Below, piece after piece: positions 29,478 to 54,096 of a DNA stretch of 64,000 nt. Both the position numbers and the translations under genes were made by a program. Origin of the DNA: Pocillopora damicornis (Eukaryota). Under the pieces are notes generated by a model. It was not told the DNA's origin. It did not search any database and worked only from the letters and a program-made list of their open reading frames with translations. Numbering within the stretch: the first letter of the stretch is position 1; each line of letters opens with the position of its first letter. Where the stretch lies: assembly GCF_003704095.1 (NCBI RefSeq), contig NW_020846753.1, positions 186,001-250,000 of the forward strand. The letters run 5' to 3'.

Positions 29478-30659
29478 GTGGTCGAGTCCTCGGAAAAGTG
29501 AATCCTCTGGAGGTTTGCGGATGGTGTTGTCAGTATCAAGCTGATTTTCGTTTACTTTAGGTTTCCATCTAATTTACTGTATGATTTCATTTTAGCTTCA
29601 AAAAAACAAAAAAAAGAAAATAAATATTTCTAGTCCTTTATGAGAATTTCTCCAAGGTATCATGAAACTGATCCGAATGTTTTCTACTTACTTTTCTGCA
29701 TATGTCTGTGCTTGAATTGGCCATGGATAAAAATGTGAGCCAGAATGCAATTCGCCTTTTCTACAAATTTTCAATTTTCTCCTCTCTTCCTTTGGCCTAT
29801 TTTTCCTTAATTATCCTTCGGTTTCAGGCCATGAAAACGATAAATTACTCTTATAATCAACTGATTAGAGTTTACATTACATATGATATGGTATTCATTA
29901 GGTAAAATGCGAAACACCTTTAAGAGACCTAGTCAATTACCTAGGATGAAAAATAACTCTGGGAAAGTTCTACAAATGTCTTATTTAACAAATTGTGATT
30001 TTCATATAAACACAAACAGCTAGCTTAGAAGCTCATCGTTTCCATATAGTACCGGTCTACTCAATGCTGTTATGAGTAATCGATGTCTTTCGACATAAGT
30101 AAGTTTGGTTCAAACAGAATTTTCATTAAAGAGAGGGTGATACTTCCTACCTATTTTAATACGATTAATTTAACACTTGCACAATTCCTTTTTCCATGTT
30201 ATTCGTACATTTAACAAATGGACTCCTTCTTGCTGTGCCAAGGATGTACTTGACACATTTTGATGTATTTTGTGATCTATTCCTGAACGGAACCACGACA
30301 ACATGAATTCCATTTGTTTTATCTTATGACGAAGCAAACAACTGTTAATTGCGATGTCATTTATGTGTTTGTCCTCCAAAACAACATTAGCATAAACCAA
30401 TCAAAATGTGTGCGTCAATTCAGCTGCTTACATAGATGTCTTCTGTTATGTTTATTTTCCGATAAACCCACGAATTTACTTTCATCTATTATTAGTTCGT
30501 TCGCATTGGCTAAATGAAGAGAAGAGACGGTAAACATTTAGTAACCGGATTACAAAGTTTACACTGGAGAAAACCGAATAATTGAGAGAGAGCTCATAGT
30601 CATATGAACGTTGTCCTGGCCTCCCTGGATTGTTTCTTCGTTTTGAACTGCTTTGCAGG

Positions 30660-31583
30660 ATGATCAACTTTACTGAGAAATTGAAGGACGAAGAAGACAA
30701 CTTAAACGAATACAAGAGAATCATTCTCATTAGTAATGGATCCTTCTCGATTTTTCTTGCAACATTCATCTGTGTCGTAAACGCTGTTATCATCTTTGCA
30801 ACTGCCAGACATCCTTTGCCTGCAGTTAAAGTAATCGATCAAATCCACAAGGCTTTCTTCTACGCTAACATTATGGATGCTACATTGTTTCTACCATATT
30901 TTGGAGTCGCTGAACTTTTACATGGTCTTGGTATTAGCGAGAAGAAAGATCTTTTTCCGAGCTATTTATCTTCAGCGTTCCTCGTTTTCGCGCAATCTAA
31001 AGTGCAAGTCACCTTCATCATTTTAATTGAGCGCGGTGCTGCTTTTAATTCTCCCCATTTCCATCGCCGAATAACAAAAAATAATAGAATTTTCATGGTG
31101 TTACTGACTGTAGTGTTATTCTCGTTGCTTTTCGTCGGACTATCTTTTGTAGGGATGAAAGAAACCGTCTACTTCAGCATTCATATTCATCTCTTCTTTA
31201 CCGCGCCGCTTTTGTTTATTCTCGTTACGACTTTCGTCACTTACTGGAAGCTGAAAAATAGAAACCGAATTGTGAGTAGCGAGATTCCTCCGTCTATGGA
31301 ACAGTTGGAATTCCACAAGAAACGGAGCGTACGCTCAGCCAGAAGATATTTGATCGTCATAGCCTCACTCATGATACCGATGTTTCTATGTATTTCGCCG
31401 TGGTATGTTGTCACACTCGTTAAAGTGAACGCCAACCACGTTTATTTAACAAACAATTTAAGGTTTCTCTGGCAAAGATTTTCCATAACGCTATTGTTTC
31501 TACCAGATGTTATTGGCCCCATAACTCTCACCCTTCGTTTTAAAACATATTATAACTCAGTTAAAAGCCTTCTACGAAGATAA
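30660..31583 (+). CDS. Intronless divergent class A (rhodopsin-like) 7TM receptor, orphan
   Basis: Long ORF from ATG 30660 with an N-terminal NFT sequon and ~7 hydrophobic segments. It has IER at the end of TM3 and PWY in TM6, and shares LPYFG and KLKNR with the neighbouring paralogues. Confidence 0.75.
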   Translation: MINFTEKLKDEEDNLNEYKRIILISNGSFSIFLATFICVVNAVIIFATARHPLPAVKVIDQIHKAFFYANIMDATLFLPYFGVAELLHGLGISEKKDLFPSYLSSAFLVFAQSKVQVTFIILIERGAAFNSPHFHRRITKNNRIFMVLLTVVLFSLLFVGLSFVGMKETVYFSIHIHLFFTAPLLFILVTTFVTYWKLKNRNRIVSSEIPPSMEQLEFHKKRSVRSARRYLIVIASLMIPMFLCISPWYVVTLVKVNANHVYLTNNLRFLWQRFSITLLFLPDVIGPITLTLRFKTYYNSVKSLLRR

Positions 31584-33376
31584 CAATTCGTCGCAGTATG
31601 AATGATTTTGCTTCTCTTAAATGATCATTAAGAACTTCCACAGAACCACTCGTTTTAATTCTATCATTGCTTCCTTGAAAATTTCCGTTCTTTCTTTCGT
31701 GAAAGGATCTCCGCATTCGTGAGAGATTTTCCCCCATTCGGGAGTCTGATTAATAATATTGATAGAGATGCCAACCTTGCCGCATCAGCTTCATTCCTTT
31801 GTTAGAGATTAAAAATAAAAAACGATGGCTGTTTTTGTTTTCAAAACATCTAAAATACAGACTTGGTCGGTAGTGATGGCGCCAATTCATTTGAAAGGAG
31901 GGAACATGTCTGTTCTCTTCAAGAGCTTTTATTTGATTTATCGATTGACAGTCAGGGAAAAATTACAATTTAAATATTGAGGGTTAAGACAGATGTTGGG
32001 AGATAATTTTTTAACAGGTTAGTGAAAGGGATTTGGCCCTTTACAATGATGAAATAATCCATCAAAACATGAAGCTTAATTCCACCTAGAAAAGAAAAAC
32101 ACAGCGCTTTTTGTTATCGTTCATAGAGGGTCCTTGACTGGACATTCATTTTTGACTTTTGGAATTGATATCGATCGTTTGTATTTTCAACAAAAGCCAC
32201 CTTGAAGGGAAAGACGAAGGCATCAGACGCAGTTCTAAAAATTATCATATTGCTTCTGATTTAGTGATAAAACTAAATATATTGGTAAAACAGATAAGAA
32301 ACATTCAAAGCGAAGCATGGATAACCCATGATTGTTCGTTATTTTTTTTTACATCTCTCGCCGTGGGGAGAATCCCTTACATGGAATTTTACATGCTATA
32401 CGCCTCTAACAAGATTTACGGGCAGATGACATTCGAAACATAAAATTATTGTGAGACCCCTGCTGGTTGTTAGGAGGGACTACTGTATTGAGACAAGCGA
32501 TTAGTTTATAATCTCCTTATGGAGGTCGATAAACCTTAGCCAGTTCACCATTGCACAGGATAAAAATAACCCTTTCCATTGATCTGATTCATTTTATCTC
32601 ATTTCTTTCATTTTATTTTACTTTTGGTTGCAGATTCAAAATAAATTTGAAAGAAACATTGATGGTGAAAATAGATAACAAACTTCCTAGTGTCCAGAAA
32701 CAAATTAAACTGCAGACGCGAGGCTCCAGAAGCTGACAATACTTTGTTTACTAAGCTTTTTATTTTTAATTTTAAACAAGTGTGGTTTTTCCCATCTCCT
32801 TAATTCTGGCGTACAAATGCTATTCAAACGGCTATTGCAGCTACAAAATTTGCATCATGAATCGCCATGATGTTGATGCAATGAATGTGGAGGTTAAAAT
32901 GGATGGACTTGGGTTAATTTATAGCACAAATTGTACCTTCTTATAGAAAATAATGAGGGCCAAGGAAAGATGAAACTTTTGGTTGAAATGGAGTTTTATT
33001 TGCACAAACGGATTCTGGTCAATTCAAGTCTCCATTAAGGAATTTATTTCTTATGCTTCACAGATTTACTTTTCGTATGTAAACATTTAAAATTCACCCA
33101 GAAAAAGGTATAGTGATCTCGACAGTAATTTAATTGATCGACGTTTCAGGGATACAGACTACTGGATTTTGTGTGTCAAGTAATTTCTCGTTTGCAATGA
33201 GTATTTTATTTAAATAGACATAATATATTCAGATTTTCACCAAATACTGCTTTTTGAAACTGTCATAACTTACAGCAGATGCCATTTTGGTAATGAACAT
33301 CGCCTCCGAACTCTCCAAAAAACATTTAGAGGCTTGAAAAGCACTGAAGGTTTCAGTCAAACAAAATCACTTCGCC

Positions 33377-34272
33377 ATGGGATTCCATGCCACGGTTTTG
33401 CTTGTAAATGGAGCGATTTCACTTGTTTTTGCTTCAGTGGCATTGGTGGGAAGTACAATCATGATCATCGCAGTTGTGAGGAATCCTTTAAACGTGATTA
33501 GAAAACCCCTCCATAGCATCGAAGATACTGGTCTCGTGCTTTCTTTCTTGGTCGGTACAGTTCTTCTTCCGTATTTTGGCATAACTGAGATTCTTCAAGG
33601 CGTAAAAAATAACTCAGATTCACTTGATTTTCCTAGCGTCGTTTTACTGTTTACGGATTTTTTGATCGCTTCCAAGTTAGCAGTCGAATTGGGCATCAAC
33701 ATTGAAAGGCATCTGGCGTACGTGCACCCGCAATTTCACCGAGCAAAAGTTACCAATCGAGCAACTTTTTTTACCTCTCTTTTGTGTGTCACATTTTTCT
33801 TCCTGTTTTCGTGTTTGTCTTTCTCAGGAATCGATGAAAAGATATACTACATCGTCTCTCTCCACGTGTGTTGCACTTGTTCGTGGTTCTTGTTCGTTTT
33901 GGTGAGCTGGTTAACCTACTAAAACTCAAGAACAGGGCAAACAGCATCAGGACAGCACCAGCTCAACCAAACCCGTTGCCCCAAGCACGAGAAAAAGCTG
34001 ATTTTGAAAGAGCCAGAAACGTATTGGCTGCTAAAAGGCATTTACAAAAGCTCGCCAAGAACTATATGCCTCTAGTAATTTCAATTATTCCGTGGTACAT
34101 AATAAAATGCGTGGCTATCGCTTGCAAAATTTGTTTGGAAAACAAGGCAGGGTTTCTATCGTAGCTTATTACTATACCCCTGGCTTTTGTTACCGATGTT
34201 TATTACCCGGTGTGGAGGATTTTCAACGGAAAATATAGCAATACCGTCAAATATATTTTATGTGGTAACTGA
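33377..34272 (+). pseudogene. Disrupted paralogue of the orphan 7TM receptor
   Basis: Collinear with 36831-37712, but has a 1-bp deletion at ~33920 (TAC T-A AAA CTC vs TAC CGA AAA CTC) and an in-frame TAG at 34162-34164 (paralogue CAA). Homology continues to ...TVKYILCGN* at 34272. Confidence 0.8.
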
Positions 34273-36830
34273 TCTAATTAATTGGGGGCATGCACGTACG
34301 ATGATCATAAGTTTCCGATGATCAGTTGTTCTCTGACATTTGTATGAAAAAATTAATGCACATAGGACCTTCCATTAAGAAAGCTAAATAGATGATAACT
34401 AAAATGAAATATTTACAGATAAGATTTGCATACAATTTAGTAGAGGTAACAACATGATTGTCCTTGAAAAATGTACTCGTGCTCATTAACACCAAATTGT
34501 ACGAGAAATCATTCTGTTACTTTTTAATAATTTACGTGAAAAACGATCATACAAAGTCAAGACGGACGAAATTTTGGCAGCGCGCGCTATTTTTAATTTG
34601 CACTCGTGTTACATGAAAAATGCACTCGTTTTCAGCCCATCAGACGGGCGTAATTTTTTCCTGTATATTACTGCGCACTCCAAAGATCTCATTAGTAATT
34701 CTCCTAACTGTCTGCCTTATAGCTCTACTGATGTTAGTTTGGAGAATTTGGTATTGGATCAACTGGTAATCCCCTCATTGATATTTTTATTCATTCACAC
34801 CACTTGTTTGCATGATATTGTATTGATATTGTTAGGAGAAATTACGTCTTGGTCACTCATGGGAGTTAAAGGGTTAAAGACAGTTAATTATGAGATTTCA
34901 TTTTCATAATTCAAAACTGTTAGAGACTCATCGCTAGCGATAGACCAGCAAAAGCAAATCTATTTTTTCTTGTGGAATAGCATTTGTTCAATTGTTTCCA
35001 TTAATGGATTACATTTAATTACACTTTCTTTATTTATATTGCGAGGAAAATTACAAAGAGCTTTAGCTTCCATTATCAAATTTTATATCAGTAATCACTC
35101 TTAAATACATCTTAAAAGATATGATGGTTATCACATTTTAACGTCTAAAATTCATAGCTGTGAGATTTTTACTTTCTGATGTTGGTCGCTTATTTAGTTC
35201 AGTTCAAATTGGCCCAATTTTAAACGTCGGTCTTGACTGTTCTGTTCTCGTTGGACAATTCACTCAGATTAATGTGAGGAAAAATTGAGAGAATTGAAGT
35301 TTTACATTTGTATGGAGGAGTTCTTAGCTATGTTTTGAAAGTATTGCATAGTGAACTTGAGCAAAATTAAGTAATTAGTACCTGCTTTGTTGTTTAAGTT
35401 GTTTCATTGAATAGTGTACCTGTTTTGTGAATTATTAAACAGGAGAATTCATCTCATTTCTGAATGCATATCGACTGTATTGCCACATTTTCTGTCCATT
35501 CCTGTTAAAATTGAACAACTCACTAAATTATATCTTATATTCTTTCTTCACTTTCGTGTGCAAGGGAAGTCTGCAACGCTTTGCCAACAGAAAAAAACAT
35601 TTTCCTGACGTTGAGGTAAATAATAATTATACCCCCAAACTTAATGATCTCAAAGTATCCCCGCGTTTTGGGTAGTCCCGAGTATCCCCGATTTCGTTTT
35701 ACTGAAAGTGAACTAAACAAGAGACTGGGGTGAGTAACATGGTGTCCAATGTTGACTCATCGTGAACTACAAAAATTGCTTTCTGAAGTCAGAGAAATTG
35801 CTCTTCTATCTAAGTAACACCAGAAATGTCCGTCACTACTGGGTTTGAGAAAAAGAGCGATCAGTCAGATGATTTTGGTCAATTGCTTCCATAAAGTCGG
35901 ACACCGAATCCGCTGAAAAGAGAGATCTTGGTACTGAATAACCAAATTTACCAAAAAGGAAATTTAATAGTTCGGTTCACCATAAGAAAATGATAATTAT
36001 GAAAATCAATGCAAAAATTGTTCTTATCAGAAGCCTGCGTATGCTTCTACCAATGATTTAAAGCTACATCTACGTTCATTCAAATGATTTATTTTCAAAA
36101 TTTTGACAGAGAAAATCGATTGTTGTTCAGCAACTGTTCATTTGCCACAAGCTTTTTATACCTTGCCGAAATGATTTTAACAAAATTTAAAGTCTTTCAC
36201 CTACCGAAAGAAAGCTGATAAAATATTTTGAACTAATGTAAGTATACTCTGTCAAAATTATGTAAATGTTATATTTTCCATCGAGAAAAAGACAGATCTC
36301 TCAAAAATGGAAAAACGAATTCAAAGTCTCTCGCCATACGTTCCTAAGCAAACATTCTCAGCTCTTTTGAAAATGGACCCTAGATTTGACAAGTGATTGA
36401 CTTAGATCCCGATGTAAACAGATCTCCCGCTAAGGAAAAGAAAAGAATTTTTTTTTTTGTAGCTTGTTGAGTTAACGTTTGAAAAACTATAGAACTGTTA
36501 ATAATTAAATTTGCCTGATCAGTTTTTTGGTTAAAGGTCGTATTTGATGGCTTTTCGTCGGAAAAGTTAATTTCCTATGCACTAATTACATTTCATAGAC
36601 ACTCCATTAATAACAACCGGGAAACATTAAAAAATATATTTGCTACTATCCATAATTTCATGCACGTACAGATGTAATATATTCAATAATTTTTCAAACT
36701 CGCAGTTCTCACTGTCATGTCCATAAGCAGATGGTTACATACTGTCAATAAAGATCCCTAACACGTAATTACAACATTTGATCATGACGGTTCGATGAAG
36801 AGGCTAAAAAATATCTCGCTTAGCTGAGAA

Positions 36831-37712
36831 ATGTCGTTCTTGTCCTCAGTTTTACTGACAAATGGCATACTATCGCTAATTTTGGCGTTAGTAACATCGG
36901 CAGGATGTTTAATCATGGGTATAGCAATTGTGAGGAATCCGTTGAATGTGACTCGTAAAGCGATCCACTGTATCGAACATGTCGGTTTAGCGCTTTCGCT
37001 TTTAGCAGGGATGGTTCTACTACCTTATTTCGGAGTCACTGAGATTCTTCAAGGCGTGAACAACAACGCTGGATCATCCGATTTTCCAAGCTTCATATCA
37101 GTGCTAGCGGATTTCCTAATCGCTTCAAAGCTTGCTATTTACTTAATTGTCTGCACCGAGAGATGTATTGCGTACAGATGTCCTCATTTTCACCGCGCAA
37201 AAGTTACAAAACGCTCAACCTTAGGCGTTTCTATTCTCTCAGTGACCTTCTGTTTCTTCGTCTCCTGTCTATCTTTCACAGGAATCGACGAAAAGAGTTA
37301 TTACAATGTCTTCATACACTTGTTTTGCTCTTCTTCGTGGGTGGTGTTTCTTTTCGTTACCTGGTTAACATACCGAAAACTCAAGAACAGAACCAGAATT
37401 GCGCCGAATGAATCAGTCCAATTACCCCAAATAAGAGAAAAAGCTGAATTTGAAAAAGCCCGCAACGCCTCGATTGCTAAGAAACATGTTCATAAAGCGG
37501 CAAAGTTTTACATGCCAGTTTTCTTAACAGTTTTACCTTGGTACGTCGTAAAATGTACCAAAGCTGTGTGCGAGGTTTGTATGACGACCGAGGCAGGATT
37601 TTTCTGGCAAAGATTCAGCATCTCCATTGCTTTTTTAACTGACGCCTATTATCCCCTGACATTTTACCGGGAATACGGTAAAACGGTAAAGTACATTTTC
37701 TGCAATCGATGA
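36831..37712 (+). CDS. Intronless divergent class A-like 7TM receptor, orphan (293 aa)
   Basis: 293-aa ORF with 7 hydrophobic segments, TER at the end of TM3 and PWY in TM6; clear paralogue of 33377-34272 and 30660-31583. Confidence 0.78.
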   Translation: MSFLSSVLLTNGILSLILALVTSAGCLIMGIAIVRNPLNVTRKAIHCIEHVGLALSLLAGMVLLPYFGVTEILQGVNNNAGSSDFPSFISVLADFLIASKLAIYLIVCTERCIAYRCPHFHRAKVTKRSTLGVSILSVTFCFFVSCLSFTGIDEKSYYNVFIHLFCSSSWVVFLFVTWLTYRKLKNRTRIAPNESVQLPQIREKAEFEKARNASIAKKHVHKAAKFYMPVFLTVLPWYVVKCTKAVCEVCMTTEAGFFWQRFSISIAFLTDAYYPLTFYREYGKTVKYIFCNR

Positions 37713-39720: not shown

Positions 39721-40245
39721 TCCACGGAGATAGAAAGTGAAATTTGGGAACAAGCTAACGATGAACAAGACCAGCCGGCCAGGCAGGTAGCGACAGAAGA
39801 ACAAACAATGTTTTGTTAACATACCAAGCGCCAAAATTGGCAAAATTATAACGCGAGCAGAGACGAAAAATATCAAAGAGAAAATGGAATACACTGTCGA
39901 CCCGAGTTTTGAAGGCTTACGCTCTACATGTAAGATTGTTATACACTTCTTTCCGCACTCAGATACAGAACCCGATAACAGACGATCTCGACATATTTTT
40001 TGAATCAATATAAAAATCTTCATTTTTCAAGTTATCCTTTTGATGTATTTTTAAATAACTTTTGTAAAAATTCACGTCGATTTGCCCCCAACAGACAGAT
40101 ATGACTGCTAAGATTGATATGTCACCATAGAAACGGTCAGTAAGTTGAGATTTCTTTTTACGGCAGTTAGTTAGTACATTCGACTGACTCGCTATTGAAT
40201 TTGATTTTCACGGCATGTAGAGACAGAGAATCGACCGAAAAGAAG

Positions 40246-43200
40246 ATGAAAGCTATTCTGTGTATTGCGGTAAGAAGAACAATTTTTAACCTTATAAGCT
40301 TACATATTACATTGAACTTATCATAAACGCAGTTCCAACAATCTTTTCTAAATTATCATCCGATGCGAGCGTAAAATTGCCGATTTTGACGTGATGATTT
40401 CATCATAGACAGTTTGTGAAGGGAGATTACCACCGTATCAAAGATGACATTAAAGTATTACCGTTCGCCTCTAAATTTAGTCACTTAAGACGTGGATCAC
40501 AATGTCTCGATACACACTACTAGTCTTCTTCAGCCGGTTTATCCCTATTCCTTCACGGAGGTTTTTTTCAATAGACGGTGCATTTTCTTTCAATTTTGTG
40601 ATGCCTTTGTCCTATGAATGGCGTTATACTAAAGATTCCTTTTTACGCGAAATTTCTAAGACAAAAACAATTGAATTTACTCCGCTCTGACTCTTGCACA
40701 GCGCTTCTAAAAGAGATTTTACATAATTTCGCGTGAAAAAAAGCTAACTTGACCTCATTAATAACAAATAAGAGCGCTATGATCTATTCTGTCTACTTAA
40801 GGGGGAAAGTATTATCTTGCCCGCCGCCATTTTACATTCTGTTGGCTAGTTTTGTTATTTTTTAAAGGTTTTTTCAGTCTCAGAAAGAAAAAAAACAAAG
40901 CAAAAGAAGACTTTAAAGACTTCTTCCCCTTTCAGAAGTATGAATACCCAAATCGCCCTTAGTAAAGCAAAGTTCCATGGTAACGAATGTGTTTTAGTAA
41001 GAATGTGTTCGTCATGAGAGTGTATACTTTTAAAAGCCGATGGAGAAACATTCATTGTATTTCGTTAGACAAGGCTATCTGTTTTTGTTATCGCGTCAGA
41101 TGTTTTACTTTTTTTATGTACGAGTCATCTTTACAGACTAACAATAGATACATATGCTTTCGTGTTTCAAGTTCAAGGCTTCCCTGTCTTTACAAAATTG
41201 TTCGATAAATTAGCTGGTGATTGACACTAAATAAATAACATCCGTTCCCAGCGCTACTAGTAACTTGGTCAGTGCAATAATGGCTGTGCCTCTCTAAAAG
41301 ACATCAGTGGCCATCTAAAACTAAACAGTTTGGTGTCTTTAAATGTAAGAGCCGATGTTAAAAACTTTTTCCAAGTGAAAGAGGTGGTAATTAACCAGAA
41401 ACTAATATTTTAACAATTCTATTTTGCCTTGTTTCAGTTTGTCCTATTAACCACCACATTACTTGCATTGTGGTATTTGCCACCAACAAGTGAGTGAAAA
41501 TGTTTTGTTACCTACATAATTTGGTACTTTGTGGGCTAAAGAATCCTAAACTCGAATCTTGTTATTAATCAAGTTGTAATTCTGATTAAAAGAAGTTTGC
41601 AGTTTTGATTGAAAAATAACTTTAAAGACTGATCACTCTTCTACTACTCCAACGAAAATCTAGTCACTTAACTCTGGTGATAATTGCGCCGAGTCTGTTG
41701 CAGGAAAGCTCTCACCTGAACAATCAGTATCACATCTTCATTTCGATTGTAAACTGCTTATTAGATGCAATTTCTTCAATTTTGTGATCAATTTGAGCAC
41801 ATAAGTTTTTCAGATCATTAACATCTGAAAGACTTCTCAAAATATTATTCCACCTCTTTATTTTTTCCAGCAGCTTTGCCTGTCAAATGGCGTGACTATT
41901 TCAGCCATGAAATAAGGGATTACTGGGCACTTCCTCGTCGAGAGAATGAACATTTACGACAGGAGCCAGACCTCGTTGAGAAATGTTGGAAAGGTAGCGG
42001 AAGTGACGTCAGTGAAGAAAGTGAAAAATACATTGGTTGGGGTGGTGAAAGAGATGATTCAGGCAGTGGCGCCGGAAGTTTAGAGGAGGAAAGTTCAGGT
42101 AGTGATGGGGAAAGTAAAGGAAGTGGAGAGGGAGGCAGCGGAGAAAATGGAGAGGAAGGAAGCAGTGGAGACAGTGGAATGAAAGAAATCAGCGGAGGTA
42201 GTGGAGAGGAAGGAAGCAGCGAAGAAAGTGAAATAGAGGGAAGCAGCAGAGAAAGTGGAGAGGAAGGAGGCAGTGCAGAGAGCAGAAAAGAAGGAAGCAG
42301 TGGAGAAAGCGGAGAAGAAGGGAGCAGTGGAGAAAGTGGAATGGAAGGAGGTAGTGAAGAAAGTGCAGAGGAAGTAGGCAGTGCAGAGAGCAGAAAAGAA
42401 GGAAGCAGTAGAGAAAGCGGNNNNNNNNNNNNNNNNNNNNNNNNNNNNNNNNNNNNNNNNNNNNNNNNNNNNNNNNNNNNNNNNNNNNNNNNNNNNNNNN
42501 NNNNNNNNNNNNNNNNNNNNNNNNNNNNNNNNNNNNNNNNNNNNNNNNNNNNNNNNNNNNNNNNNNNNNNNNNNNNNNNNNNNNNNNNNNNNNNNNNNNN
42601 NNNNNNNNNNNNNNNNNNNNNNNNNNNNNNNNNNNNNNNNNNNNNNNNNNNNNNNNNNNNNNNNNNNNNNNNNNNNNNNNNNNNNNNNNNNNNNNNNNNN
42701 NNNNNNNNNNNNNNNNNNNNNNNNNNNNNNNNNNNNNNNNNNNNNNNNNNNNNNNNNNNNNNNNNNNNNNNNNNNNNNNNNNNNNNNNNNNNNNNNNNNN
42801 NNNNNNNNNNNNNNNNNNNNNNNNNNNNNNNNNNNNNNNNNNNNNNNNNNNNNNNNNNNNNNNNNNNNNNNNNNNNNNNNNNNNNNNNNNNNNNNNNNNN
42901 NNNNNNNNNNNNNNNNNNNNNNNNNNNNNGAGAAAGTGGAATGGAAGAAAGCAGCGGAGAAGGTGGAGAGGAAGGGAGTAGCCAAGAATATGGAAGCACA
43001 GACGAAAGTGGAGGCGAAGGAAGTGGCGAAGAGAATGAAGAGGAGAGAAGCGGTGAAGAAAGTGGAGATGAGGGAGGCAATGAAGAACACCAAGAGAAGG
43101 AAGGAAACGGGGAAAGGGAAAAGGAAGGGAGTGCTGAAGAAAATGGAAACGAGCAAGGCGGCATGGAGAGTAGCGAGGAAAGTGGTGAGGAGGAAGGCAC

Positions 43201-43375
43201 TGGAATGGAAAATATCATCGCTGTTAACAATGGCCGCGTTCTTTTGGCCGGTGGCATTCCACGTAACCCTACCACCGAGCCCATTTCACCGACACCTGAG
43301 ACGACAGATGCCGTTCAGGACCTTCTAGAGATGGTTAAAGAGATAGAGAATGTAGCTGAGCTTCCATGGCCTTAA
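40246..43375 (+). CDS. Gene E: secreted Glu/Ser/Gly-rich acidic repeat protein (gap in middle)
   Basis: Exons 40246-40269 (MKAILCIA), 41438-41489 (FVLLTTTLLALWYLPPT) and 41871-43375 splice in frame. The product is a signal peptide followed by 9-aa GEEGSSGES-type repeats. N-gap at 42421-42929; ends ...AELPWP*. Confidence 0.8.
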
Positions 43376-45112
43376 TTGGGTTGGAGTGTCAGCGCTGATT
43401 ATACGACTAGTTATAATTTTGTATAGTTAAATATGATTAGAGATAAAACTAGAAACGAACATAACTTCCCATGCTTCACTTCTTCTGCGGGACAAAAATC
43501 GCAGTGCTTCAGTGAGATACAGGGTCGCTTCCAATTTAGTTAGAAAATTCGGTGACCATTTTCTTTCAAGAGGATCAGTAAAAACCTTTTTTTTTTCTTT
43601 ACACAAAAGAACGGGACAACTATGCTCCATTTGTATAACAGAATTTTCTCCGAGCAAAAGAAAAAAAAACACACTTTGGTTGGAGAGGCAGTCGGCTCTA
43701 GTTCTATTCGCTCATTTAAGCCGAGATTTCATGCCTTTTTAGACTGCAAGCGATGGAAAAAGGAAATTACCTGCAAGGAGGTCTTCAATTCTTGCCCGGC
43801 CTTGAGCAACTCAACCCGGCGAGTTCTGCCAGGGCTTGGCACTGATTACTTCAGTGCCAAAACCCGGCAAACCCTCCCCCTCTGAAATCTTCCCGCGGGC
43901 GGAGAAGCGAGCGTTCTGTAGTGTTCAAAAAGAAGATCTGCTCGCAAGCTAATGAAGTATGAAATAATTGAAATGTATGCAAAGCTGTAAAATCGAGTCA
44001 AGCACCAATCAAGTCAGAGTTAGTTTAATTGTATTTATAAACTCCTTAAGCTGGGTTCGTCAACTTACATCAAGAAAAAAGCATCGTAGAGCTTGAGAAA
44101 TAAATGGTACAATGATCGTTTGATTATTCTGTCAATAGGAAAAAGGGGAAGAACAATTTAAGGTCGTTCCATTGCATTTCCCATAAGATGAAATAGCAAA
44201 ACAGCCCTAAACTGAAGTATACGAAGATGCAGTTATCTCCTTTCGATCCTGCAATTTTTTTGGCGTAATGCTACGGATTTTTAACTTTTAGCTCATTATT
44301 AAGCTCCAATTTGAATCCTATTTGTCAAATTTGGATTAACTGACAAAGAATCAGACAGTCAGAAAAGCCATCACAGTCACGTTTACATCATTTACTGTTA
44401 GAGAAATTAAAAACGCCACCTTTTAGGATACAGGTGTAGAAAATTTGTCACCAAAACTAAACGACGTTATATTTGGGTATTAAACAAAATTGGCCTACAA
44501 GTAAATTGCATGCTAATTGAATTGCCATGTAGTCGGTAAATTATCAGGACTCTCAGGGATTCCCCCATATCTGCGCAATTTTCTTCTGCGTCGATTTGCG
44601 CGTGACCAAGCTGCTGTCTCGAGAGCCTTCTTCGATCCTCCTTCGCGAAGGAGAGTGGACTCATCAGTGGCTGGTAATCGACCCGGAGATGTGACAACTT
44701 TCAGTGTAGCCTGAATGTAGCGAAGAAAACTGTAGTAGGCCTTCCACGATTATTTTGTTACACCCGCTGGTTGTCGATTGGTCACATGACCAAAATGGAT
44801 ATCCCATGAACATTTGCAAAATTAAGCACAAGGAAACTGGACACTAATGTATTTTCCGCGCTGAAATTTAAACATGGCGACTAAGTTTAAAGCTGTTGCT
44901 TCCAAATTTATTTCCGCACTGAGCGATCCAAGTAATTTTGAGAGATCTTGATTACACCATTAAATCAGTGTTGTTAACTAACATCGGCTTTATTCTCTAC
45001 TGAACTTTCATTAAGGAAAACTGAAGGTAAAACGTAGCTTTAGCTGAGGTAAACCCGATATTGATTGATCGAGAGTGTGTTTACGCCGCTCGTTTCCGAA
45101 GTTTACTCAACG

Positions 45113-48100
45113 ATGGACGAGCTTTCATCAGAAGACAAGAAAAGCCGTTATACTGTTAAGGTTTGTATAATTTTTTTCAAGTACGTTATTAATCAGAAAA
45201 AATAGACCCCTTACTCAAGTGTTCATCTATGTACATTTTCTATGTAAGCTATTCATGTTATCTTTAACACGAAACACACAAGAAAGTTGAGTGCAATGTA
45301 AAACTTTAGACAACCCCAACAGTAAAAATGCCACTACAGAGTAAATTTTCGTTTGATAACATAAGTCAAGTCATATTTAAGAGCATTCTGTTATTGACTT
45401 GTACATACAGCCAACGAGTATGGATGACTTTAATATAATCAAACCAATCAGCCGTGGTGCCTTTGGGTAAGTCATCTTTAATCCTTCAACTTTACTCAGT
45501 TCACTGGATGCACAGCATAAGTGGGAGAGTTGTAGGTTATTATCGAGTGACACTTTCTGTAACTGCAACAGTAATGTCACAACGCTGTTGAAGATACTGT
45601 TTCTTATTTCAAGACAAATAATGGTCAACTTCAAATGGGTTCAAGAATTTGCACAGAGAATTTATTAGAAATTATTTTTTCTGGTTGTTACTGGTTTAGT
45701 TGTCTGATTTTGGAATACTTTCATCCTCGTTACATTGTGAGAACATTGCTCTTTTTGTTAATCAGTCTTCTTTGTTTATAATTTTGGTACCTTTGTGTTC
45801 AACAAATTACCTTGTTGAGTCCACATTGATTGAATTAGGTTTTTCAAGTAATTAATACATGGAACTTGGCAATGTTACCTGACATGACTGGATAGTAATT
45901 TAATATATTAATGAGAATGTTATGTGAATAGTAATAGGTGATGAAGAGTTGCTTTTCAGGAAAGTATTTTTGGCTCGAAGGAGAGACAAAGATCAACAAT
46001 TCTATGCTGTGAAGGTGGTTAAGAAGACTGACGTTGTGAACAAGAACATGATGGAACAGGGTGAGGAGCAAATTTTTAAGGCAAGACTTTTGTACAGCCT
46101 CATATTTTATTATGCACACAGTTGCTGGATAAAGGAAACAATGGTATAAAACTATGGGGTGTGTTTGGGACTATGGCATTGTTTTACAATTGTACAGGGC
46201 AAAAGGGAAACTTCTTCAATTTTTCTGTGAGAAAACATGGCGCTTTTCATTCATGTGAATTTCCTTTTATTGTCAAAACGACACTATTCTGTTATGTATA
46301 TAACAGGACTTTTTTTTTTATCCAGTGGTTGCAGAAAGAGATTGTCTGGCAATTGCAAAGAGTCCCTACATTGTAAACTTGTTTTATTCCTTTCAGTCAA
46401 AAGATAGAATATTTCTGGTGAGTTCTGTTGTATTTTTAACCTTTAGCACACTAACATCAGTAAGCATATGCATTTCCTCAATTGCTCCTCATTTCCTTCA
46501 TTGCTGACGAGGAGAATTTGTTTAACAATTATGAGCTTCTTTAGTTGGTGATCATTTCCTTTATTCTTGTGACCTTCATGTTCGACTCAGGACTCCTCAT
46601 GAGGAGAAGTTAGGTGCTAGTCACTCTTAGGGATTTAAAGGTTAATTCTCAGGTAGGTTTAGAGAGGCTGTCTTTTGTTGACTAGTTAGTTGTTTGTTTT
46701 TCTCAGTTCATGTGCTACTCAGTCCAGTTTTATCCTTGACTGGAGTTTGATTTTTAAAATCATCTTTTTGGTACATAATAAATTCTTTACTGACCAGAAG
46801 TTTGTTTGGTCAATAATACATATGACTGTTCACTTCTTGATTTAGGTCATGGAGTATTTGATTGGAGGAGACTGTAAATCATTGTTACATAACATGGGAT
46901 ACTTTGATGAAAACATGGCAAGAATCTATATATCACAGGTCAATTATTCATCCTGATCCTTTCATTATCATCCTAGACACTTTACATTTGAAGATAATGT
47001 AGATTAAAATGACTACCAATGCTTGTGCATGTTAATGTGTAACATTAGAAGTACCCTCTGTTCTTTACAAAGCAATTACTGGCCAAAAATCCAGCCAGCA
47101 GTCACCACTTTTTTTATCTACTAGCAAATTTTCCAGGAACCTGACACTTAGCAACAACCCTGTCAGCAGCTGTATGGGGAAATTAACCTGTGCTCCTCTG
47201 CTCCTCTCCCAAAATAGATGGCTCCTTCCTTCTCAGAGGATTGCAGCATGTCCTTGAGAAAACAGCAGTAATAAAGCTTACTATAAGTGATGCTGTGGCT
47301 TAATTTGGACTAAATCTGTCGTTGAGACTTGGTTGGGTTTTTTTTCCTGGGTAAGACTAATGTCACTCTCACAGTCATTCAAGAGTTGAAATGGGTACTA
47401 GCAAACTGCCAGAGGAGCCTGATGACAGGGCAGTAGCCTGCAATGGACTAACATCCTATCCAGGGAGGGGGAGAGTAGCTATGGTCCTAATCACTTCTAG
47501 CTGTCAAGACTGGTATAAGCTGCAGTACCTCCTAGGTCACATGGCTTCAATACATACCAACCCTTACCCACCTCACATGAAATACATCTCACAGTTTCTT
47601 CACTTGTCTTTTGAGTCCTATTTTAAATTATTTTTCTTTTGGCTGCAGGTAGTCTTGGCTTTGGATTATCTTCACAAACATGGGATTATTCACAGGTAAG
47701 AGAAACATCTACAGTGTATGCAATTCAAAATTGAATTACTTTCCAGAAAATGTTATGACCCAAACACCAGTCACAACAAAAATACATTCTCTTGGAGTTT
47801 CATCATGGAATTAACCAGTTTGTTGGCTGTATGTACAAGTAAATAACAAAATACTTTATCATCTGTGATTAAGAACCTGAAATATAACATCCCAAGAGCT
47901 GTACTATTTCTGGCTCTTCCATACATACAGCATTGTGGTTGTTGAATAATGTTTTTTGAATTTATCTCCCCCCTCCACCACACCAAAAAAACAAAACAAA
48001 ACAAAAATCCTTTCTGGTCATTTAGCTTCTTTTTTCTTATTTTTTATTTCTCTCTCTCTTTCTTTGTCAACTTGATGTCTTGAAAAAAAGAGTTTCTCCC

Positions 48101-51100
48101 ACAGCTAGTGTTACTCTGATGTGTTTCAAATGAGTAGAGAATAAAGAGTGTCTCCATATTAATTGTGCATACCATTAAGAATGTTTAAGGCCTGTTGCTT
48201 AGGTCACCTGTCTGCATTCATGAATTTTTCTAAAGTTCTTTTTCAAAATGCAACTTTAGGGATCTTAAGCCAGACAACCTTCTAATCTCCAATGAAGGAA
48301 AAATCAAGTTGACTGATTTTGGGTTGTCAAGGTTGACATTGGAAAGAAGTAAGTCTATTTTATCAATTGTGAATATGAATCATTCAAACGTCGAATAAAC
48401 CCACGATTTTTTTTTGGTGTTTTTTTGTTGTGCATCTGTTACCTTAACTTTTAATTTTAAATGCAGCAAGTTGTTTTTGACAACTTTCATTTATTGGAAG
48501 AAGTTGATAACCTTTGGATTGAACATGTCATAGAGATGTTCTGGTAAACTGTACCATGTAACCTCTCCCCATAATGTGAAAATGAATACCTCAAGAGGAT
48601 GTAATGGAATGTTCATTGTCTAGAGCCATCAGGAATTTGGTTTTTACTTAAAATCACTCTGTGATTGGATAACAAAACGTGCACCTCTTTCTAAGCTAAT
48701 CAGATTCAAAACTGGATATACTGGATCTATGCAGTACTGGATGTACTGGATTTATAGTAATTTGGCACGTTCACGTTTAAACGAGTCCTGTACTCACCAT
48801 GTAAAATGGATAAATAAAATACCTTCCTACCTACCAGAACCTGTCAGTTGTGCCTTTGTCACTTAAGTTTTGCCTCCCAACTTTGATATTTTACTGGAAT
48901 GAAGCTTTTTACCTTATGCTATTAGCTGCATACCCCTGACAACATAATCTTAAACCATTTTTCTTAGAACCTAGTTTCATTGATGTGATGAGCACACCAT
49001 CTCTGAACAAGAATGACAAGACTTCAGGTTCAAGTTTCTTTAGAACACCTGGTCAAGTAATGTCACTGACTTCCAATTTCACTTTTGTAAGTATACATAA
49101 TTTCATATTCAAGTTTATTTTGTTATCAGTAGTGATAATATTCGCCCAGGAGAACTAATAGATCTGAAATACTACCTAGTCGCTTCCTGCTGCACAAACC
49201 GCGGAGTTACGCTGGGGTAAATGTGCGTATACATAACAACTACATAATAAATCATCACCTGCGATGCGAACACCAAATTGTTTACATTCCGGTACGTAAA
49301 CATTTAAGCCAGCGGCGATTGTAATGAATTAATATGGCATATTCGCTTCATTATTCGCTTAGTAATACACGTGTTTCAATACCTTGTATAAGTGACATTT
49401 TCCTTTTCCTTCGAATTCATCAACACCTCAAATCAAGCAAATTCACTGCTACAGCTCGTTATTCGATAAATTTGTGACGCGACGTGCGACTGTGTAACAT
49501 TGTAGCTTAAAAGCTAATGAAAAATTCTTATTACGTAAATTTTCCGTCGTCGACTCGTCGCTTTCTCAAACCCAAAAGTTCTTTGTCTTACACAACAGTG
49601 TAACACGGCGGAAACTTATAGCTCTGAATAACAAGGGCACATAAGTCGCGCATTTTGTTCGACCGTGCGCGCACAAATATCGTATATATGCGTCTGACTA
49701 CACTACGTCTGAGCGTCTACGCAGTTAACATATGTCTGAGCGGTACTGTTGTGTGTCCCTTCCCGGATTACTCTAAACAAATTATTTTGGTGTTAAAATA
49801 ACGGGTCTTTTAGCAGTCTAAAACTAAAGGGAAACTAATGTTTGTGGTGTTAGTCATTGTCTGCGGCGAGACCAACGCAGAGGTCAAGACTAAACAGCAG
49901 TTGCTCATCACTGGAGGAACACATGGAAACCACACCCATAAGGCAGGTCACCCCGGTCTGCCGTGTTGACAAAATCCCTGGTGCAACTCCAACTGGGATT
50001 TTGGGACCTAACAGCCAAACTCCGCTCGCTGCTTCTGGAGGTAAATTCTTTAGATTTGTAAAATAACAGATTGGGGCCCAAGACTGGCCTTCTCTACTAA
50101 CGGAGTCGGATTTGTAATCAGAAGTGCACAGCAATGCGATCTGGTGAACTTCAAAATGACTGAATAGGAAGCAAATACTTATGCCGCTTATGACTCCTTC
50201 GCTCATGATCTAATGAAAACTACATCCTTGGAGTCATACAGTACTGTATCGGGATAGCCAGTGAACTTGCACTGTGGTTTTTTGACTATTTTCCTTCAGC
50301 TTGCGACTTTGACAATCGAGTTTTCAGGACATCTGCGGTGTCGCAGTCCAATTTTGATTTCAACGAGCTTATTAGTTAGATTAAAATTTAGACAAATCAT
50401 TGACTAATTTTCTTTTCTTCGTATGTTGGTTTGTACAGGTCAGGCCGTCAAAAAGCGAACCCAATTCTGCCCCAAAATCAGCCAAAAGACTTTTAACATT
50501 GACGATCCCCCTGGGACACCTCTGGTTGCGGATTTAATGCTGCACAAAAACGTGAGAAACAGATCGCCTGACGAAGAAAACCAACTGCCGGCCTCAAAGA
50601 GACTTCGACAGACTGGGCTGACCAGGGAAATCGATGCGTTAACGCTGAAGGAAATACGAAGGAGCTCGGAGAATGAGTCTCCAAGAGGCCCTTTGCAGGA
50701 GGTGTGTACACACCAACGACCCCTGGTAAAGGGAGCTGATATCATACCCGAGAATTCCCTTGTGCGCGACCAAAGCCCTCTGGAATATAAATGTGAAAGC
50801 GAGGGAAGGACAGCTTCCCGGGAGCAAGAAATTATCACTACTCCGAACCCCTCTAGTTGTGCACCGTTGGTCCTTAAGTTTTCCAGTCCACGTGAACGAG
50901 CAGGGACTATGATGGAATTTTTGAAAGAGAAAGGACAAGTAACTCCTAACAACGAATGCTTGGAGAAGGAGCAAGCCATGAGTACCTTTACACCTTTAAC
51001 ATCTATGACGCGTAGAATTACATCGCCTGGGATGCCTTCTACATCAGGTTATGACAGTGAAACGAGTAGTTCTTGTGAAGAAAGTAATGAACAGTACCAC

Positions 51101-54096
51101 AGGTATTCCAACGAAGCAGTTAACAGTGATTTAGAGAAAACTGATAAAGAATCGAGAGTAATTAGAACACTTGAACTAGCGGGAAATAGAGTAAATAACT
51201 TTGGTTCGAGAACATCTCAGAGGGCAGATACAAGCGGGAGTTCCGGTTTTAATTCAAGTGGAAGTCCATGTGTAAGAGAAGGAGAATTTACTGTTAATCA
51301 GACACCAGATAAATTGGAAATCGAAATCACAGATGAGATTTTACCAACCGTTGGTAATGATAAGAACAATAGCCTCTCGAGGCGCGAGAGCGGGATTGCA
51401 GTATTACCACCTTCACCAGATGTGAGCGACAGAAATGTAGACAACAGTTCAGCTGATGAAGTAGAGAATGAGAAGTTTTCATCACATCCTGTTAGTTTTA
51501 CGGCCGAAATTGATAAGTCCTCCTCTGAGTCGTGTCCTTCTCATCCACTCGAAAGAAGTTTGACAATCGACTTCGAAAATAAACAAAACGTAAGGCGCGT
51601 TAATTTGAAGCCAAGTGAAGATGATTATTTGAACAGAGGCGAAGTCTTTCATGGGGACAGTGAGGTGGAATCCTCGAGTCGCTCTCGTTGCATGACAATC
51701 CCTTTTGAGAACAGCGATCAAGAACACGAGGAAGAAGAGAAAAGTGTCACTCAGGCTCCAGGTTCTCACATGGACATTAGTTTACCTGTTACAATAACTT
51801 CTGAATCGCCGATGGATGTTACTTTTCAGAGTAGCTCAAGCTTGAAAAGTACCCCAGGCCCCATGGAAGTGTCCAACCAGTGGCACCACACCTCAGCCCC
51901 TCTCATTCGGACACCTTTTAGGACCCCTAAGTCTTGTAGACGAGGAAAGCGGCCCACATCGTCGCCACCCAAGAACAGAATCTTGGGAACCCCAGACTAC
52001 CTCGCACCAGAAATACTCTTGGGAAATGAGCACAGTAAGTTTGGCATAAAAATTTTTTACCTGTCATTAAGACTTTGACTGTAAGAAAGAACATCATCTC
52101 TGAGTAATTGAGGGGTTTAAGTAAATGACTTAATAAATTCTGGATAACCAATCGTTTGCAAAAGCAGAAGATCAGAATGTTACAGCTAGAAAAACTGGGT
52201 TGCATAGAAAACTCAGAAAAATTATTTCTCGAATAATTTTTCATTTCATCTCCTTCAAAACACCAGAAACATCTTCTTTTGCACCTTCTCGACCTCGTAG
52301 TTTCCATTTCTAGACCGCTTTTTACCCGATCCCTCGGTCACTTCATTTTTGAACGAAGTCAAACCACACAATAAACCGGCTTATCAAACCAGTAAAGTCA
52401 AAATCACCACAAAATCCTTAGCTTGCAAACATAAGGATGTTGAAATGATGTACATGTAACGACTTATCCCACGACTATTTTTCGAAGAAGTGTGTGGCTT
52501 TATCTGAGGTGATTTGATCAAAATCTTTTTTTTCCTAAGCCCCAGCAGTGGACTGGTGGTCCCTAGGGGTATGTTTGTACGAGTTCCTTACGGGAGTTCC
52601 GCCATTCAACGACGACACACCTGAGCTGGTCTTTAGTCATATTATGCAAAGAGGTAAGATATTTGGGGTTGTAGTTGAGTCGTGCACAAAGTACGTGTAC
52701 GAGCAAACAGCGATGCAATGTGATGTTTTAAATTTATGTAATCGTTTTACGTTGAAGAATTACTGTGGCCAGAGGGAGAAGAGGCGCTGTCCCAGAATGC
52801 AGTAGATGCTGTGGAACGCATCCTTATTCTTGAGGCAGAGCAGAGACCTGGTGCTAAAGGTTTNNNNNNNNNNNNNNNNNNNNNNNNNNNNNNNNNNNNN
52901 NNNNNNNNNNNNNNNNNNNNNNNNNNNNNNNNNNNNNNNNNNNNNNNNNNNNNNNNNNNNNNNNNNNNNNNNNNNNNNNNNNNNNNNNNNNNNNNNNNNN
53001 NNNNNNNNNNNNNNNNNNNNNNNNNNNNNNNNNNNNNNNNNNNNNNNNNNNNNNNNNNNNNNNNNNNNNNNNNNNNNNNNNNNNNNNNNNNNNNNNNNNN
53101 NNNNNNNNNNNNNNNNNNNNNNNNNNNNNNNNNNNNNNNNNNNNNNNNNNNNNNNNNNNNNNNNNNNNNNNNNNNNNNNNNNNNNNNNNNNNNNNNNNNN
53201 NNNNNNNNNNNNNNNNNNNNNNNNNNNNNNNNNNNNNNNNNNNNNNNNNNNNNNNNNNNNNNNNNNNNNNNNNNNNNNNNNNNNNNNNNNNNNNNNNNNN
53301 NNNNNNNNNNNNNNNNNNNNNNNNNNNNNNNNNNNNNNNNNNNNNNNNNNNNNNNNNNNNNNNNNNNNTCCGTACTTTTAATTCATAATTCGTTAACACC
53401 AAATGCATTTCGTTTCAGTGACGTTTTATTTTTTTCGTTCTTTTCGTTTTAGAGATAGAAAGCCTTCCGTTCTTTTCAAATATGGATTGGTCTTCGATTC
53501 ATAATCATCCCCCTCCTTTTGTGCCTCACCCAGATGACATAACTGACACCATTTATTTTCACGGTAGGTCCATTTTTCATTTCGGTCATCTCGGGTGTTC
53601 ATGCAGCAAACTAATGTATTTAACAAGTTGCCGATAGGAGAATATAATTCTAAAATGTATTGCACTCGAGCCCAGTGACCTTCACCGTTGGAGCTCATCC
53701 CAGTTTTCATGGCACAAAGCACGAAGCGGTCAGTAGGTAGTGTTGTCACTCCTTCTGGATGGTGATGAAGTGGTTTACCTCACCCTCCTCCCAACCTACT
53801 GAAACTGCTGTTCTGTGAGACATCTTTCCCTTTGAACACAACACAAATGTTACGGGCAGCATGACTCTCACTTGTACTTTTTGATCCGGATTTTAGAAGT
53901 GTAATTGCAATTTTAGGCCGCCATGTATCTTGAGGTGAATCTTTCACTTTTTCATCGGTTCAACCCAATTGAAAATTAACAATAAGGTAAGACGCAGACA
54001 CACCTAGTTAAACTTGCTCCTTTGTTCAATTGTTTCTTTGTTTTTGCAGCAAGAAACACGATGCAGAATCTTCGAATGTCGTCCTTTAGCCACTGA
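45113..54096 (+). CDS. MASTL: Serine/threonine-protein kinase greatwall (~933 aa)
   Basis: 14 exons: 45113-45160, 45411-45466, 45960-46060, 46326-46417, 46846-46938, 47649-47695, 48260-48348, 48968-49086, 49854-50040, 50439-52034, 52540-52653, 52758-52859, 53453-53563, 54050-54096. Motifs [24 protein letters not shown] and RTPGQVMSL; a very long insert between DFG and GTPDYLAPE; C-terminus [14 protein letters not shown]. Confidence 0.95.
46436..46645. mobile_element. MITE with TTAACCTTTA/TAAAGGTTAA terminal inverted repeats in MASTL intron
   Basis: 10-bp TIRs. The internal GATCATTTCCTTTATTCTTGTGAC is shared with 8783-8970, and a similar TAAAGGGTTAA end occurs at ~34877. Confidence 0.65.
47329..47545 (+). 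repeat. Degenerate SINE-body-like repeat (related fragments on the opposite strand at ~2894-3090 and ~53665-53900)
   Basis: Recognised from memory as resembling a common cnidarian SINE core; mutual similarity is weak and was judged by eye. Confidence 0.35.

Follow-up and report, generated by a model that had tools for sequence, protein, structure and literature searches.

A spliced and expressed gene of Pocillopora damicornis, single-copy by genome sequence search, encodes a predicted secreted polyanion with a body built on a 9-residue Gly/Glu/Ser repeat. Our leading, tentative reading is that this protein may be a proteoglycan core, bearing glycosaminoglycan chains at a subset of its Ser-Gly sites but lacking Fam20C phosphates. 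Because the sole Fam20 gene found is of the xylose-kinase type, S-x-E motifs in secreted proteins of this coral should not be read as Fam20C sites.

Gene structure and transcripts

The gene lies on the forward strand of the window, that is, the whole 64,000-nucleotide stretch analyzed. It is read in three coding exons from a start codon (ATG) at 40246 to a stop codon at 43373-43375, with the following features:

40210..40245, + strand: 5' UTR, from the RNA contig start of run X1 at 40210; its extent is the reach of the RNA contigs
40246..40269, + strand: coding exon 1, encoding residues 1-8 of the predicted signal peptide
40270..41437, + strand: intron 1, GT..AG, 1168 nt, phase 0, joined in X1, X9 and X15
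41438..41489, + strand: coding exon 2, remainder of the hydrophobic leader (best 19-residue Kyte-Doolittle mean 2.34)
41490..41870, + strand: intron 2, GT..AG, phase 1, with a tandem acceptor (alternative end 41873)
41871 (or 41874)..43375, + strand: coding exon 3, running to the stop codon
41873..41992, + strand: unique N-terminal 40 residues, aromatic and charged
41993..42121, + strand: non-repetitive acidic lead-in, carrying the Gly-Ser-Gly sites of the 5' body
42122..42420, + strand: 27-bp tandem array of 9-residue Gly/Glu/Ser units, 11 units visible
42421..42929, no strand: assembly gap of 509 N; an RNA contig fills its distal ~250 nt with further diverged units that keep the frame
42930..43204, + strand: Glu-rich 3' body (36% Glu, 25% Gly, 15% Ser)
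43053..43075, + strand: 23-nt stretch, doubled in other runs around 31 extra letters
43205..43372, + strand: unique stretch of 56 residues at the C-terminus, predicted to form a beta-hairpin and an amphipathic acidic helix, without a hydrophobic anchor
43376..44104, + strand: 3' UTR, probably ending at AATAAA 44099-44104

The first-pass annotation had proposed that two small upstream exons supply a signal peptide, and these exons are confirmed: both introns are joined in three of the four RNA runs compared. The intron 1 joint comes from runs of three studies (X1, X9 and X15). For intron 2, X15 joins to 41871 and X9 to 41874, the alternative end making the protein one residue shorter, while X1 has a 381-nt skip listed three places leftward. 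Run X8 has no joint and covers intron sequence. The gene is real: it is spliced, and its transcript is seen in RNA runs from four studies. An ATG-TAG start-stop lies within the 5' UTR at 40215-40220. Downstream, RNA cover reaches 43650, an oligo-dT contig extends 461 letters beyond, and the AATAAA at 44099-44104 is the sole poly(A) signal in 43376-44400. The whole protein has 526 amino acids, provided that the gap size is correct. The claim that it is an extremely polyanionic secreted protein also holds up, since the product is predicted to be secreted and has a net charge of -68 over 329 sequenced residues, with a pI of 4.05.

The repeat array and its protein

All nine 9-mers quoted earlier for the 27-bp repeat are found in register at 42122-42418, and TRF gives 10.6 copies of period 27. 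The suggested 4-unit higher-order period is a hint only, with an identity of 0.81 at lag 108 compared to 0.71-0.73 at lags 27, 54 and 81, just 0.68 at lag 216, and 2.7 copies visible. The coding strand, described as nearly purine-only, is 85% purine, which is the top value among sampled 290-nt windows (mean 0.50, sd 0.05) and results from the codons for Glu, Gly, Ser (AGY), Lys and Arg. Summed RNA contig depth is far greater over the array than over the unique parts and is not usable as a copy number.

Stops or a frameshift within the gap had been named as grounds for rejecting the gene model. Contigs of two runs (X15 and X17) extend into the gap from its distal side and keep the frame, and the distal ~250 nt are read in frame in an RNA contig; no single contig among those compared spans all 509 N. 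A 54-nt in-frame segment that is absent from the window at 43053-43075 is present in X15 and X17, has matching loose ends in X1, X8 and X9, and also occurs in the ENA proteins P0002 and P0006-P0011.

We predict that the protein is disordered with short structured ends. The C-terminal fold is based on a single-sequence model of low confidence (mean pLDDT 61) together with hydrophobic moment and hydropathy. The mature protein, as far as sequenced, has a single Cys, which sits in the unique N-terminal 40 residues. Pfam has no known domain in either half of the protein.

Of 65 candidates scored in the paralogue search, only the gene itself matched the repeat. The unique termini, proposed earlier as search queries, gave a divided result. 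The C-terminal 60 residues matched one of 38 candidates; this was an almost identical ENA fragment, from a cluster of 10 unnamed members. The N-terminal region had no accepted relative, either among proteins of 275-875 amino acids (0 of 11 candidates) or, for its 66 residues, among 1.84 billion representatives; the latter set holds no self-like protein, which means that the gene is absent from it and that the empty result is not proof of an orphan. Two matches of these 66 residues, a carrier-domain-like repeat protein and a 3485-aa repetitive ORF, were judged repeat-inflated chance. As a control, a conserved exon recovered 7 homologues from 7 candidates. JGI metagenome scans gave pattern matches in 0 of 293 and 0 of 226. 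No named homologue was found, including any named CARP or SAARP, with CARP2, CARP6 and B7W112 compared by described motifs only. The protein is an undescribed member of a familiar kind, the acidic, disordered, secreted coral proteins.

Serine modification and rival explanations

The first-pass annotation had treated the S-x-E motifs as potential sites of Fam20C-type phosphorylation, a claim that we do not retain. Searches of the genome found a single Fam20 locus (contig C2200 of a gapped assembly) and no Fam20C-type kinase gene in that assembly. The locus scores 411 (Fam20B-type) compared to 280 bits, and by the criteria of PMC5865150 it is B-type at all three diagnostic sites: the Y-x-G-F-D loop, two residues between the Cys pair, and Lys at the third site. 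All seven homologues retrieved retain this loop, spacing and Lys. Basal-animal Fam20 enzymes gave no phosphorylation of casein, osteopontin or enamelin, and the Hydra equivalent yielded no protein phosphorylation (PMC5865150). Fam20C is reported from nematodes onward, but not from Hydra or sponge (PMC7948968). A literature search for Fam20C in coral skeleton found nothing relevant, as judged by the listing. A FAM198 search gave no match, and its control also matched nowhere.

Since the single Fam20 gene found is B-type, the chief competing modification falls away. A matrix protein hyperphosphorylated at S-x-E, similar to DMP1, osteopontin and Starmaker, modified by a missed Fam20C or an unknown secretory kinase, is improbable. 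The gaps in the assembly leave room for such a gene, S-x-E occurs at 26 of 55 sequenced serines, above shuffled sequences (17 compared to 9.8 and 8 compared to 5.0), and scleritin, phosphorylated by antibody blot, is a secreted cnidarian precedent (PMC3365975); the Fig 1 legend of PMC4890752 also names a column for "phosphorylation detected by MS/MS". However, the S-x-E enrichment is not above that of Ser-Gly or S-x-x-E, and in 11 of these 26 motifs the serine also belongs to a Ser-Gly site.

We speculate that, once the leader is cleaved, a Golgi xylosyltransferase would prime those Ser-Gly serines that have Glu neighbors, and chondroitin-type chains would then grow on them. This would give a hydrated polyanion of extended shape, with Ca2+ bound by its carboxylates and any sulfate. 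Its short unique ends, two in number, could tether or oligomerize it, and array length would set its charge and chain number. Ser-Gly sites number 22 among the 55 sequenced serines, and 10 of the 22 have two or more acids in the four upstream residues; in the 3' body, five have at least two acids upstream, compared to 1.8 in shuffles. The overall Ser-Gly enrichment is modest (15 compared to 10.2 and 7 compared to 3.6 in shuffles), and the shuffle p-values overstate it because tandem copies are not independent. Ser-Gly-x-Gly is at chance (4 seen, 3.4 expected), as is E/D-G/A-S-G (a single site in 233 residues), the strict motif of C. elegans, which may not be the cnidarian one. The general attachment rule is Ser-Gly near acidic clusters, and motifs on their own are ambiguous (PMC8418075). 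The Xylo_C, CHGN and Fam20 families exceed their cut-offs in the genome (G000), and the presence of xylosyltransferase and chondroitin-synthase genes makes a proteoglycan core the better guess, even though glycosaminoglycan enzymes are expected in any cnidarian and so do not point to this protein. Chondroitin proteoglycan linkers exist in Hydra (PMC5865150). In Acropora, the soluble skeletal matrix contains 3.9% glucuronic acid, 4.1% galactosamine and a sulfate band, with arabinose the dominant skeletal sugar and xylose minor; glycosaminoglycan sites on its skeletal proteins are predicted, which "remains to be demonstrated experimentally" (PMC4043741).

The closest competitor, a somewhat less probable one, is an unmodified or lightly modified Glu-rich skeletal polyanion like CARP2, CARP6 and AGARP, whose carboxylates would concentrate Ca2+ and stabilize amorphous calcium carbonate. 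The low pI, the Asp+Glu content of 28.4% (over 328 sequenced mature residues, gap residues not included) and the predicted disorder with short structured ends, as described for AGARP, all agree with this explanation. In addition, Glu-rich CARPs are tied to early mineral (PMC8086859), and Glu and Gly come next after Asp among skeletal amino acids (PMC4043741). The neighborhood is a further point: as the first-pass annotation had claimed, the gene lies near an Asp-loop cluster, 11.6 kb from the last exon of CUB genes with Asp-rich loops, yet three receptor-like ORFs stand between them. Arguing against a bare polyanion, the acidic content is below the 30-35% of the CARP definition, acidic runs in the sequenced part are no longer than 3, neither RGD nor RGE occurs there, and Gly+Ser make up almost half of the body, compared to a Gly-poor AGARP. 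No peptide of the protein was found in the proteome tables or text searched, a weak result given that most tables carry no sequences, and four of its peptide strings had no literature match.

Alternatively, although this is unlikely, the protein could be a granin-like packaging or gel-forming protein of secretory granules, mucus or cnidocysts with no skeletal role, its acidic body condensing with Ca2+ and its ends perhaps released as peptides. Acidic prohormones of the chromogranin A type are chondroitin proteoglycans that assemble in granules (PMC8418075), and titles of cited references report chondroitin in developing nematocysts. Occurrence of the transcript across the four studies and basic pairs near the N-terminus and inside the repeat would also suit this role, but the sequenced part has no amidation signal (Gly-Lys/Arg-Lys/Arg), and no furin-type R-x-K/R-R site was seen in it. 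Least probable of all is that the long leader is an uncleaved type II anchor that holds the acidic body on the cell surface or in the Golgi lumen: its 19-residue hydrophobic stretch would be suitable, but its short basic start, three Thr in the core and Pro-rich, small-residue cleavage context at the end are not what such an anchor predicts.

Skeletal role and comparison with known systems

Acidic glycans are thought to be important in coral calcification, and a role for this protein in skeleton building is possible. As its site of action the calcifying matrix is our first guess, a tentative one, ahead of mucus, mesoglea and cnidocyst. A bolder version, which we consider quite unlikely, is that the protein serves the calcifying matrix specifically, as a multi-chain chondroitin proteoglycan core, and is a carrier of the sulfated acidic glycan of the skeleton. 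If so, corals without Fam20C would use glycan carboxylate and sulfate where vertebrates use phosphoserine on S-x-E proteins, and charge could be tuned between colonies through array length. The single-copy gene, with more than 20 Ser-Gly sites and unique tryptic ends, provides a concrete target for glycoproteomics.

Among described proteins, CARP2, CARP6 and AGARP/B7W112 of Acropora millepora share with the repeat protein a signal peptide, a length of about 500 amino acids, a pI near 4, richness in Glu, and disorder with short structured ends. CARPs and SAARPs are defined by Asp+Glu of about 30% (strictly 35%), a pI of 3 to 4.5 and more than 100 amino acids; the repeat protein falls within the pI and length ranges and lies near the lower bound of composition, just outside it, with gap residues not counted. 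By their descriptions, CARP2 has an RGE motif and CARP6 poly-E, which set both apart, and B7W112 (522 aa) is Gly-poor, with a DEAE repeat and a single predicted glycosaminoglycan site, in contrast to the Gly/Ser/Glu 9-mer and 22 Ser-Gly sites found here. A Stylophora entry named "spore wall protein 2-like" is likewise an orphan with a signal peptide and no orthogroup, detected in the insoluble skeletal matrix by 1-2 peptides. Compared by description only, it differs in its length of 807 aa, in being marked as TM and GPI, and in its low log-probability (1.64, 0.46). This automatic name tends toward Gly/Glu/Ser repeats. Synteny with that entry is unsupported: a UDP-glucose dehydrogenase-like protein of nearby accession has its family match on a different contig here.

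The SIBLING/SCPP proteins of vertebrate mineralization and the otolith proteins Starmaker and OMM-64 are also secreted, disordered, acidic and S-x-E-rich, and the spliced hydrophobic leader and S-x-E content of the repeat protein are features of Fam20C substrates. The RGD motif and phase-0 introns are SIBLING features, and SCPP introns are phase 0. The coral gene differs in the phase of intron 2 (phase 1), in having no RGD in its sequenced part, and in the kinase, which was not found in this genome.

Acropora SAP1 and SAP2 contain short Ser/Gly/acid repeats in which glycosaminoglycan sites are predicted (SG[D,6]GD and G[D,7]S; PMC4043741 Table 1), but are Asp-based and reported as Acropora-specific, SAP1 with TM/GPI features. 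An analogy, of function only, may be drawn with C. elegans CPG-1 to CPG-24, which are secreted, lineage-specific chondroitin cores with Ser-Gly in acidic surroundings; the nematode motif occurs at one site only in the sequenced bodies of the coral protein, in which Pfam finds no link, chitin-binding or other folded domain. In aggrecan, the CS domain is likewise a Ser-Gly/Glu tandem repeat of variable length.

Gene structure and transcripts

The acidic repeat gene is spliced, expressed and single-copy, with three coding exons and an assembly gap.

40246-40269, forward strand: first coding exon
41438-41489, forward strand: second coding exon
41871 (or 41874) to 43375, forward strand: third coding exon, with the stop codon at 43373-43375
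42421-42929: assembly gap, 509 bases given as N

Part of the gene stretch was present in 21 of the 23 sequencing runs listed; these carry the labels coral or marine metagenome. RNA is on record for eight runs from four studies, and splicing was examined in contigs of four of them (X1, X8, X9 and X15). The first-pass annotation had proposed two leader exons, and their splicing was borne out in X1, X9 and X15. Contigs of all three cross intron 1 with a GT..AG joint. The intron 2 acceptor is at 41871 in X15 and 41874 in X9, a tandem acceptor with a one-residue difference, and the X1 contig has a 381-nt skip at this intron, listed three places to the left. The X8 contigs showed no joint at either intron and covered intron sequence. 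RNA contigs reach upstream to 40210 and downstream past 43650, and an oligo-dT contig extends 461 letters further; its end would fall near 44099, the sole AATAAA of the 3' region. The 5' UTR under RNA cover has an ATG-TAG start-stop at 40215-40220, 31 nt before the start codon. Both unique ends of the gene occur once each in the genome, and the repeat matched itself alone among 65 scored genome candidates.

No contig spans the 509 N from side to side. Contigs from X15 and X17 (a run whose kind is not on record) each enter 42930 via 34 letters in frame with the 5' array, and approximately 250 nt of sequence inside the gap, made of divergent 27-bp units, comes from the X15 contig. This contig has 38 differences; no stop is among the 32 listed (read by hand), and a 3-nt deletion takes out one whole codon. 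As to a stop or frameshift in the gap, a concern raised at first pass, contig sequence covers the distal part, which is in frame, and stops short of the middle of the array. A 54-nt in-frame segment, carried by X15 and X17 with a copy of a 23-nt stretch on either side, is absent from the window near 43053-43075. ENA proteins support this segment, as do loose ends in X1, X8 and X9, such that all five runs examined show it or hint at it; its absence reflects either a deletion allele or assembly collapse. The protein is 526 amino acids long if the gap size is right, and the segment would add 18.

Protein composition and motifs

After the hydrophobic leader (best 19-residue mean 2.34) come 40 unique residues, one of them Cys, then the acidic body (29.6% Glu, 25.8% Gly, 22.7% Ser and 3% Asp over 233 sequenced residues) and a unique tail of 56 residues that lacks a hydrophobic anchor. 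The earlier description of a secreted polyanion holds for acidity (net charge -68 over 329 residues, pI 4.05, Asp+Glu 28.4%), and secretion is predicted from the leader. The coding strand of the array, described as nearly purine-only, is 85% purine. What was proposed as a 4-unit period resembles a local duplication: there is an identity peak at lag 108 (0.81) and none at lag 216 (0.68). In a near-identical ENA protein, the last 115 residues, modelled from the single sequence (mean pLDDT 61), are coil apart from a hairpin and a single helix, both in the tail, and the helix is amphipathic. Among the RNA-contig differences listed (40 of 58; codons read by hand), those within 43076-43372 differ by region: the four that fall in the acidic body, at 43112-43178, all change residues, while of the four in the C-terminal tail three are silent, which hints weakly at constraint on the tail.

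Pfam gave no domain in either half of the protein, and no distant homologue was found, the largest library searched being without even a self-like protein. The window comes from a stony coral, and another gene of that genome has an Oculina patagonica homologue with 79% identity. No published description was found in literature outside subscription journals, which was searched mainly by topic and to a lesser extent by sequence.

Motif counts were compared with 5000 composition shuffles for the 5' and 3' bodies (the sequenced repeat regions either side of the gap) separately. S-x-E occurred 17 times versus 9.8 shuffled and 8 versus 5.0, respectively; Ser-Gly, 15 versus 10.2 and 7 versus 3.6; and S-x-x-E, 18 versus 11.1 and 11 versus 5.2; these excesses are overstated because tandem copies are not independent. 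Eleven serines belong to both S-x-E and Ser-Gly. On these counts, the motifs do not single out any one modification.

Fam20 and the likely nature of the protein

The first-pass annotation named S-x-E as the Fam20C kinase motif and Ser-Gly near acidic residues as the glycosaminoglycan attachment motif. A Fam20 family search of the genome gave five matches among seven scored candidates, all at one locus (contig C2200 of coral assembly G000, L009 2586-8483), and one-exon and full-length near-identical protein queries revealed no second locus in this gapped assembly. Xylose kinases of the Fam20B type and protein kinases of the Fam20C type can be told apart at three sites (PMC5865150). The coral exons are B-type at all three, with a Y-x-G-F-D loop instead of F-Y-F-S-D, a Cys pair spaced by two residues rather than three, and Lys rather than Arg at the third site; the Thr-Gln pair is retained. 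In single-exon PDB searches, Hydra xylosylkinase ranked first in three of five, was the best Fam20 protein yet below designed repeat proteins in one, and fell slightly behind Fam20A and Fam20C in one. The full-length protein scored 411 bits against the Hydra enzyme versus 280 against human FAM20C. All seven homologues retrieved are B-type, and the sole named one is 'glycosaminoglycan xylosylkinase-like'. Fam20 enzymes from Hydra and sponge showed no kinase activity on casein, osteopontin or enamelin (PMC5865150), and according to a review Fam20C is present from the nematodes on (PMC7948968).

We tentatively regard the protein as a candidate proteoglycan core. The glycan case is not strong, being largely by elimination. 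Xylosyltransferase and chondroitin-synthase families are present in the genome, which makes it plausible, although the strict nematode attachment motif (PMC8418075) occurs at only one site. In such a protein, the leader would direct secretion, the body would be disordered, some Ser-Gly sites would bear xylose-linked chains, Ca2+ may be bound, and the two unique ends could act as tethers. A naked CARP-like skeletal polyanion is a less probable reading; we do not file the protein as a CARP because Asp+Glu is just below the threshold and no orthology to a CARP is shown.

Packaging in a granule, mucus or cnidocyst is unlikely. The S-x-E phosphoprotein proposed at first pass is more doubtful still. 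Phosphorylation of secreted cnidarian proteins is on record (PMC3365975; PMC4890752), so the coral may have another kinase, but no Fam20C-type kinase was found in genome searches, and we therefore do not file the protein as a Fam20C substrate. The sole Fam20 gene found and its retrieved homologues, being B-type, would not account for the phosphates reported on such proteins. A form anchored in the membrane by an uncleaved leader seems very improbable.

Neighborhood and comparison with skeletal matrix proteins

The last exon of the Asp-loop CUB genes lies 11.6 kb upstream, in agreement with the roughly 11 kb first reported. Three receptor-like ORFs lie between, and a greatwall-like kinase lies downstream.

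3517-28616: cluster of genes that pair CUB exons bearing Asp-rich insertions with a Thr/Pro linker and a Ly6/three-finger-like exon; the last CUB exon ends at 28616
3848-3980: TEAPTT-type repeat matching, at the motif level only, that tabulated for the Acropora skeletal Threonine-rich protein B3EWZ7
30600-37712: three receptor-like ORFs with few introns; a weak 7tm_1 match in the first (E 2.2e-5) is below cut-off, and the second, which spans two frames (33338-33922 and 33838-34164), may contain a frameshift
47361-53452, forward strand: greatwall/MASTL-like kinase (weak matches: Pkinase, E 0.0044; PDB greatwall, E 0.045), interrupted by 505 N at 52864-53368
62540-62881: exon that weakly matches a periplasmic-binding-protein family (E 0.0039) and probably begins a class C GPCR

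A skeletal role is a candidate function. Glucuronic acid and galactosamine are reported as minor components of the soluble skeletal matrix of Acropora, which also shows a sulfate band but in which arabinose predominates (PMC4043741). The Stylophora skeletal orphan 'spore wall protein 2-like' (PMC7115838; PMC7902050) is a lead as a counterpart; compared by description only, it differs in that its TM and GPI marks and neighborhood do not fit. The acidic repeat protein would work much as do the disordered, acidic proteins in the matrix of corals (PMC8086859; bioRxiv 10.64898/2026.03.24.713908; bioRxiv 10.1101/2024.06.04.597398) and otoliths (PMC9496343).
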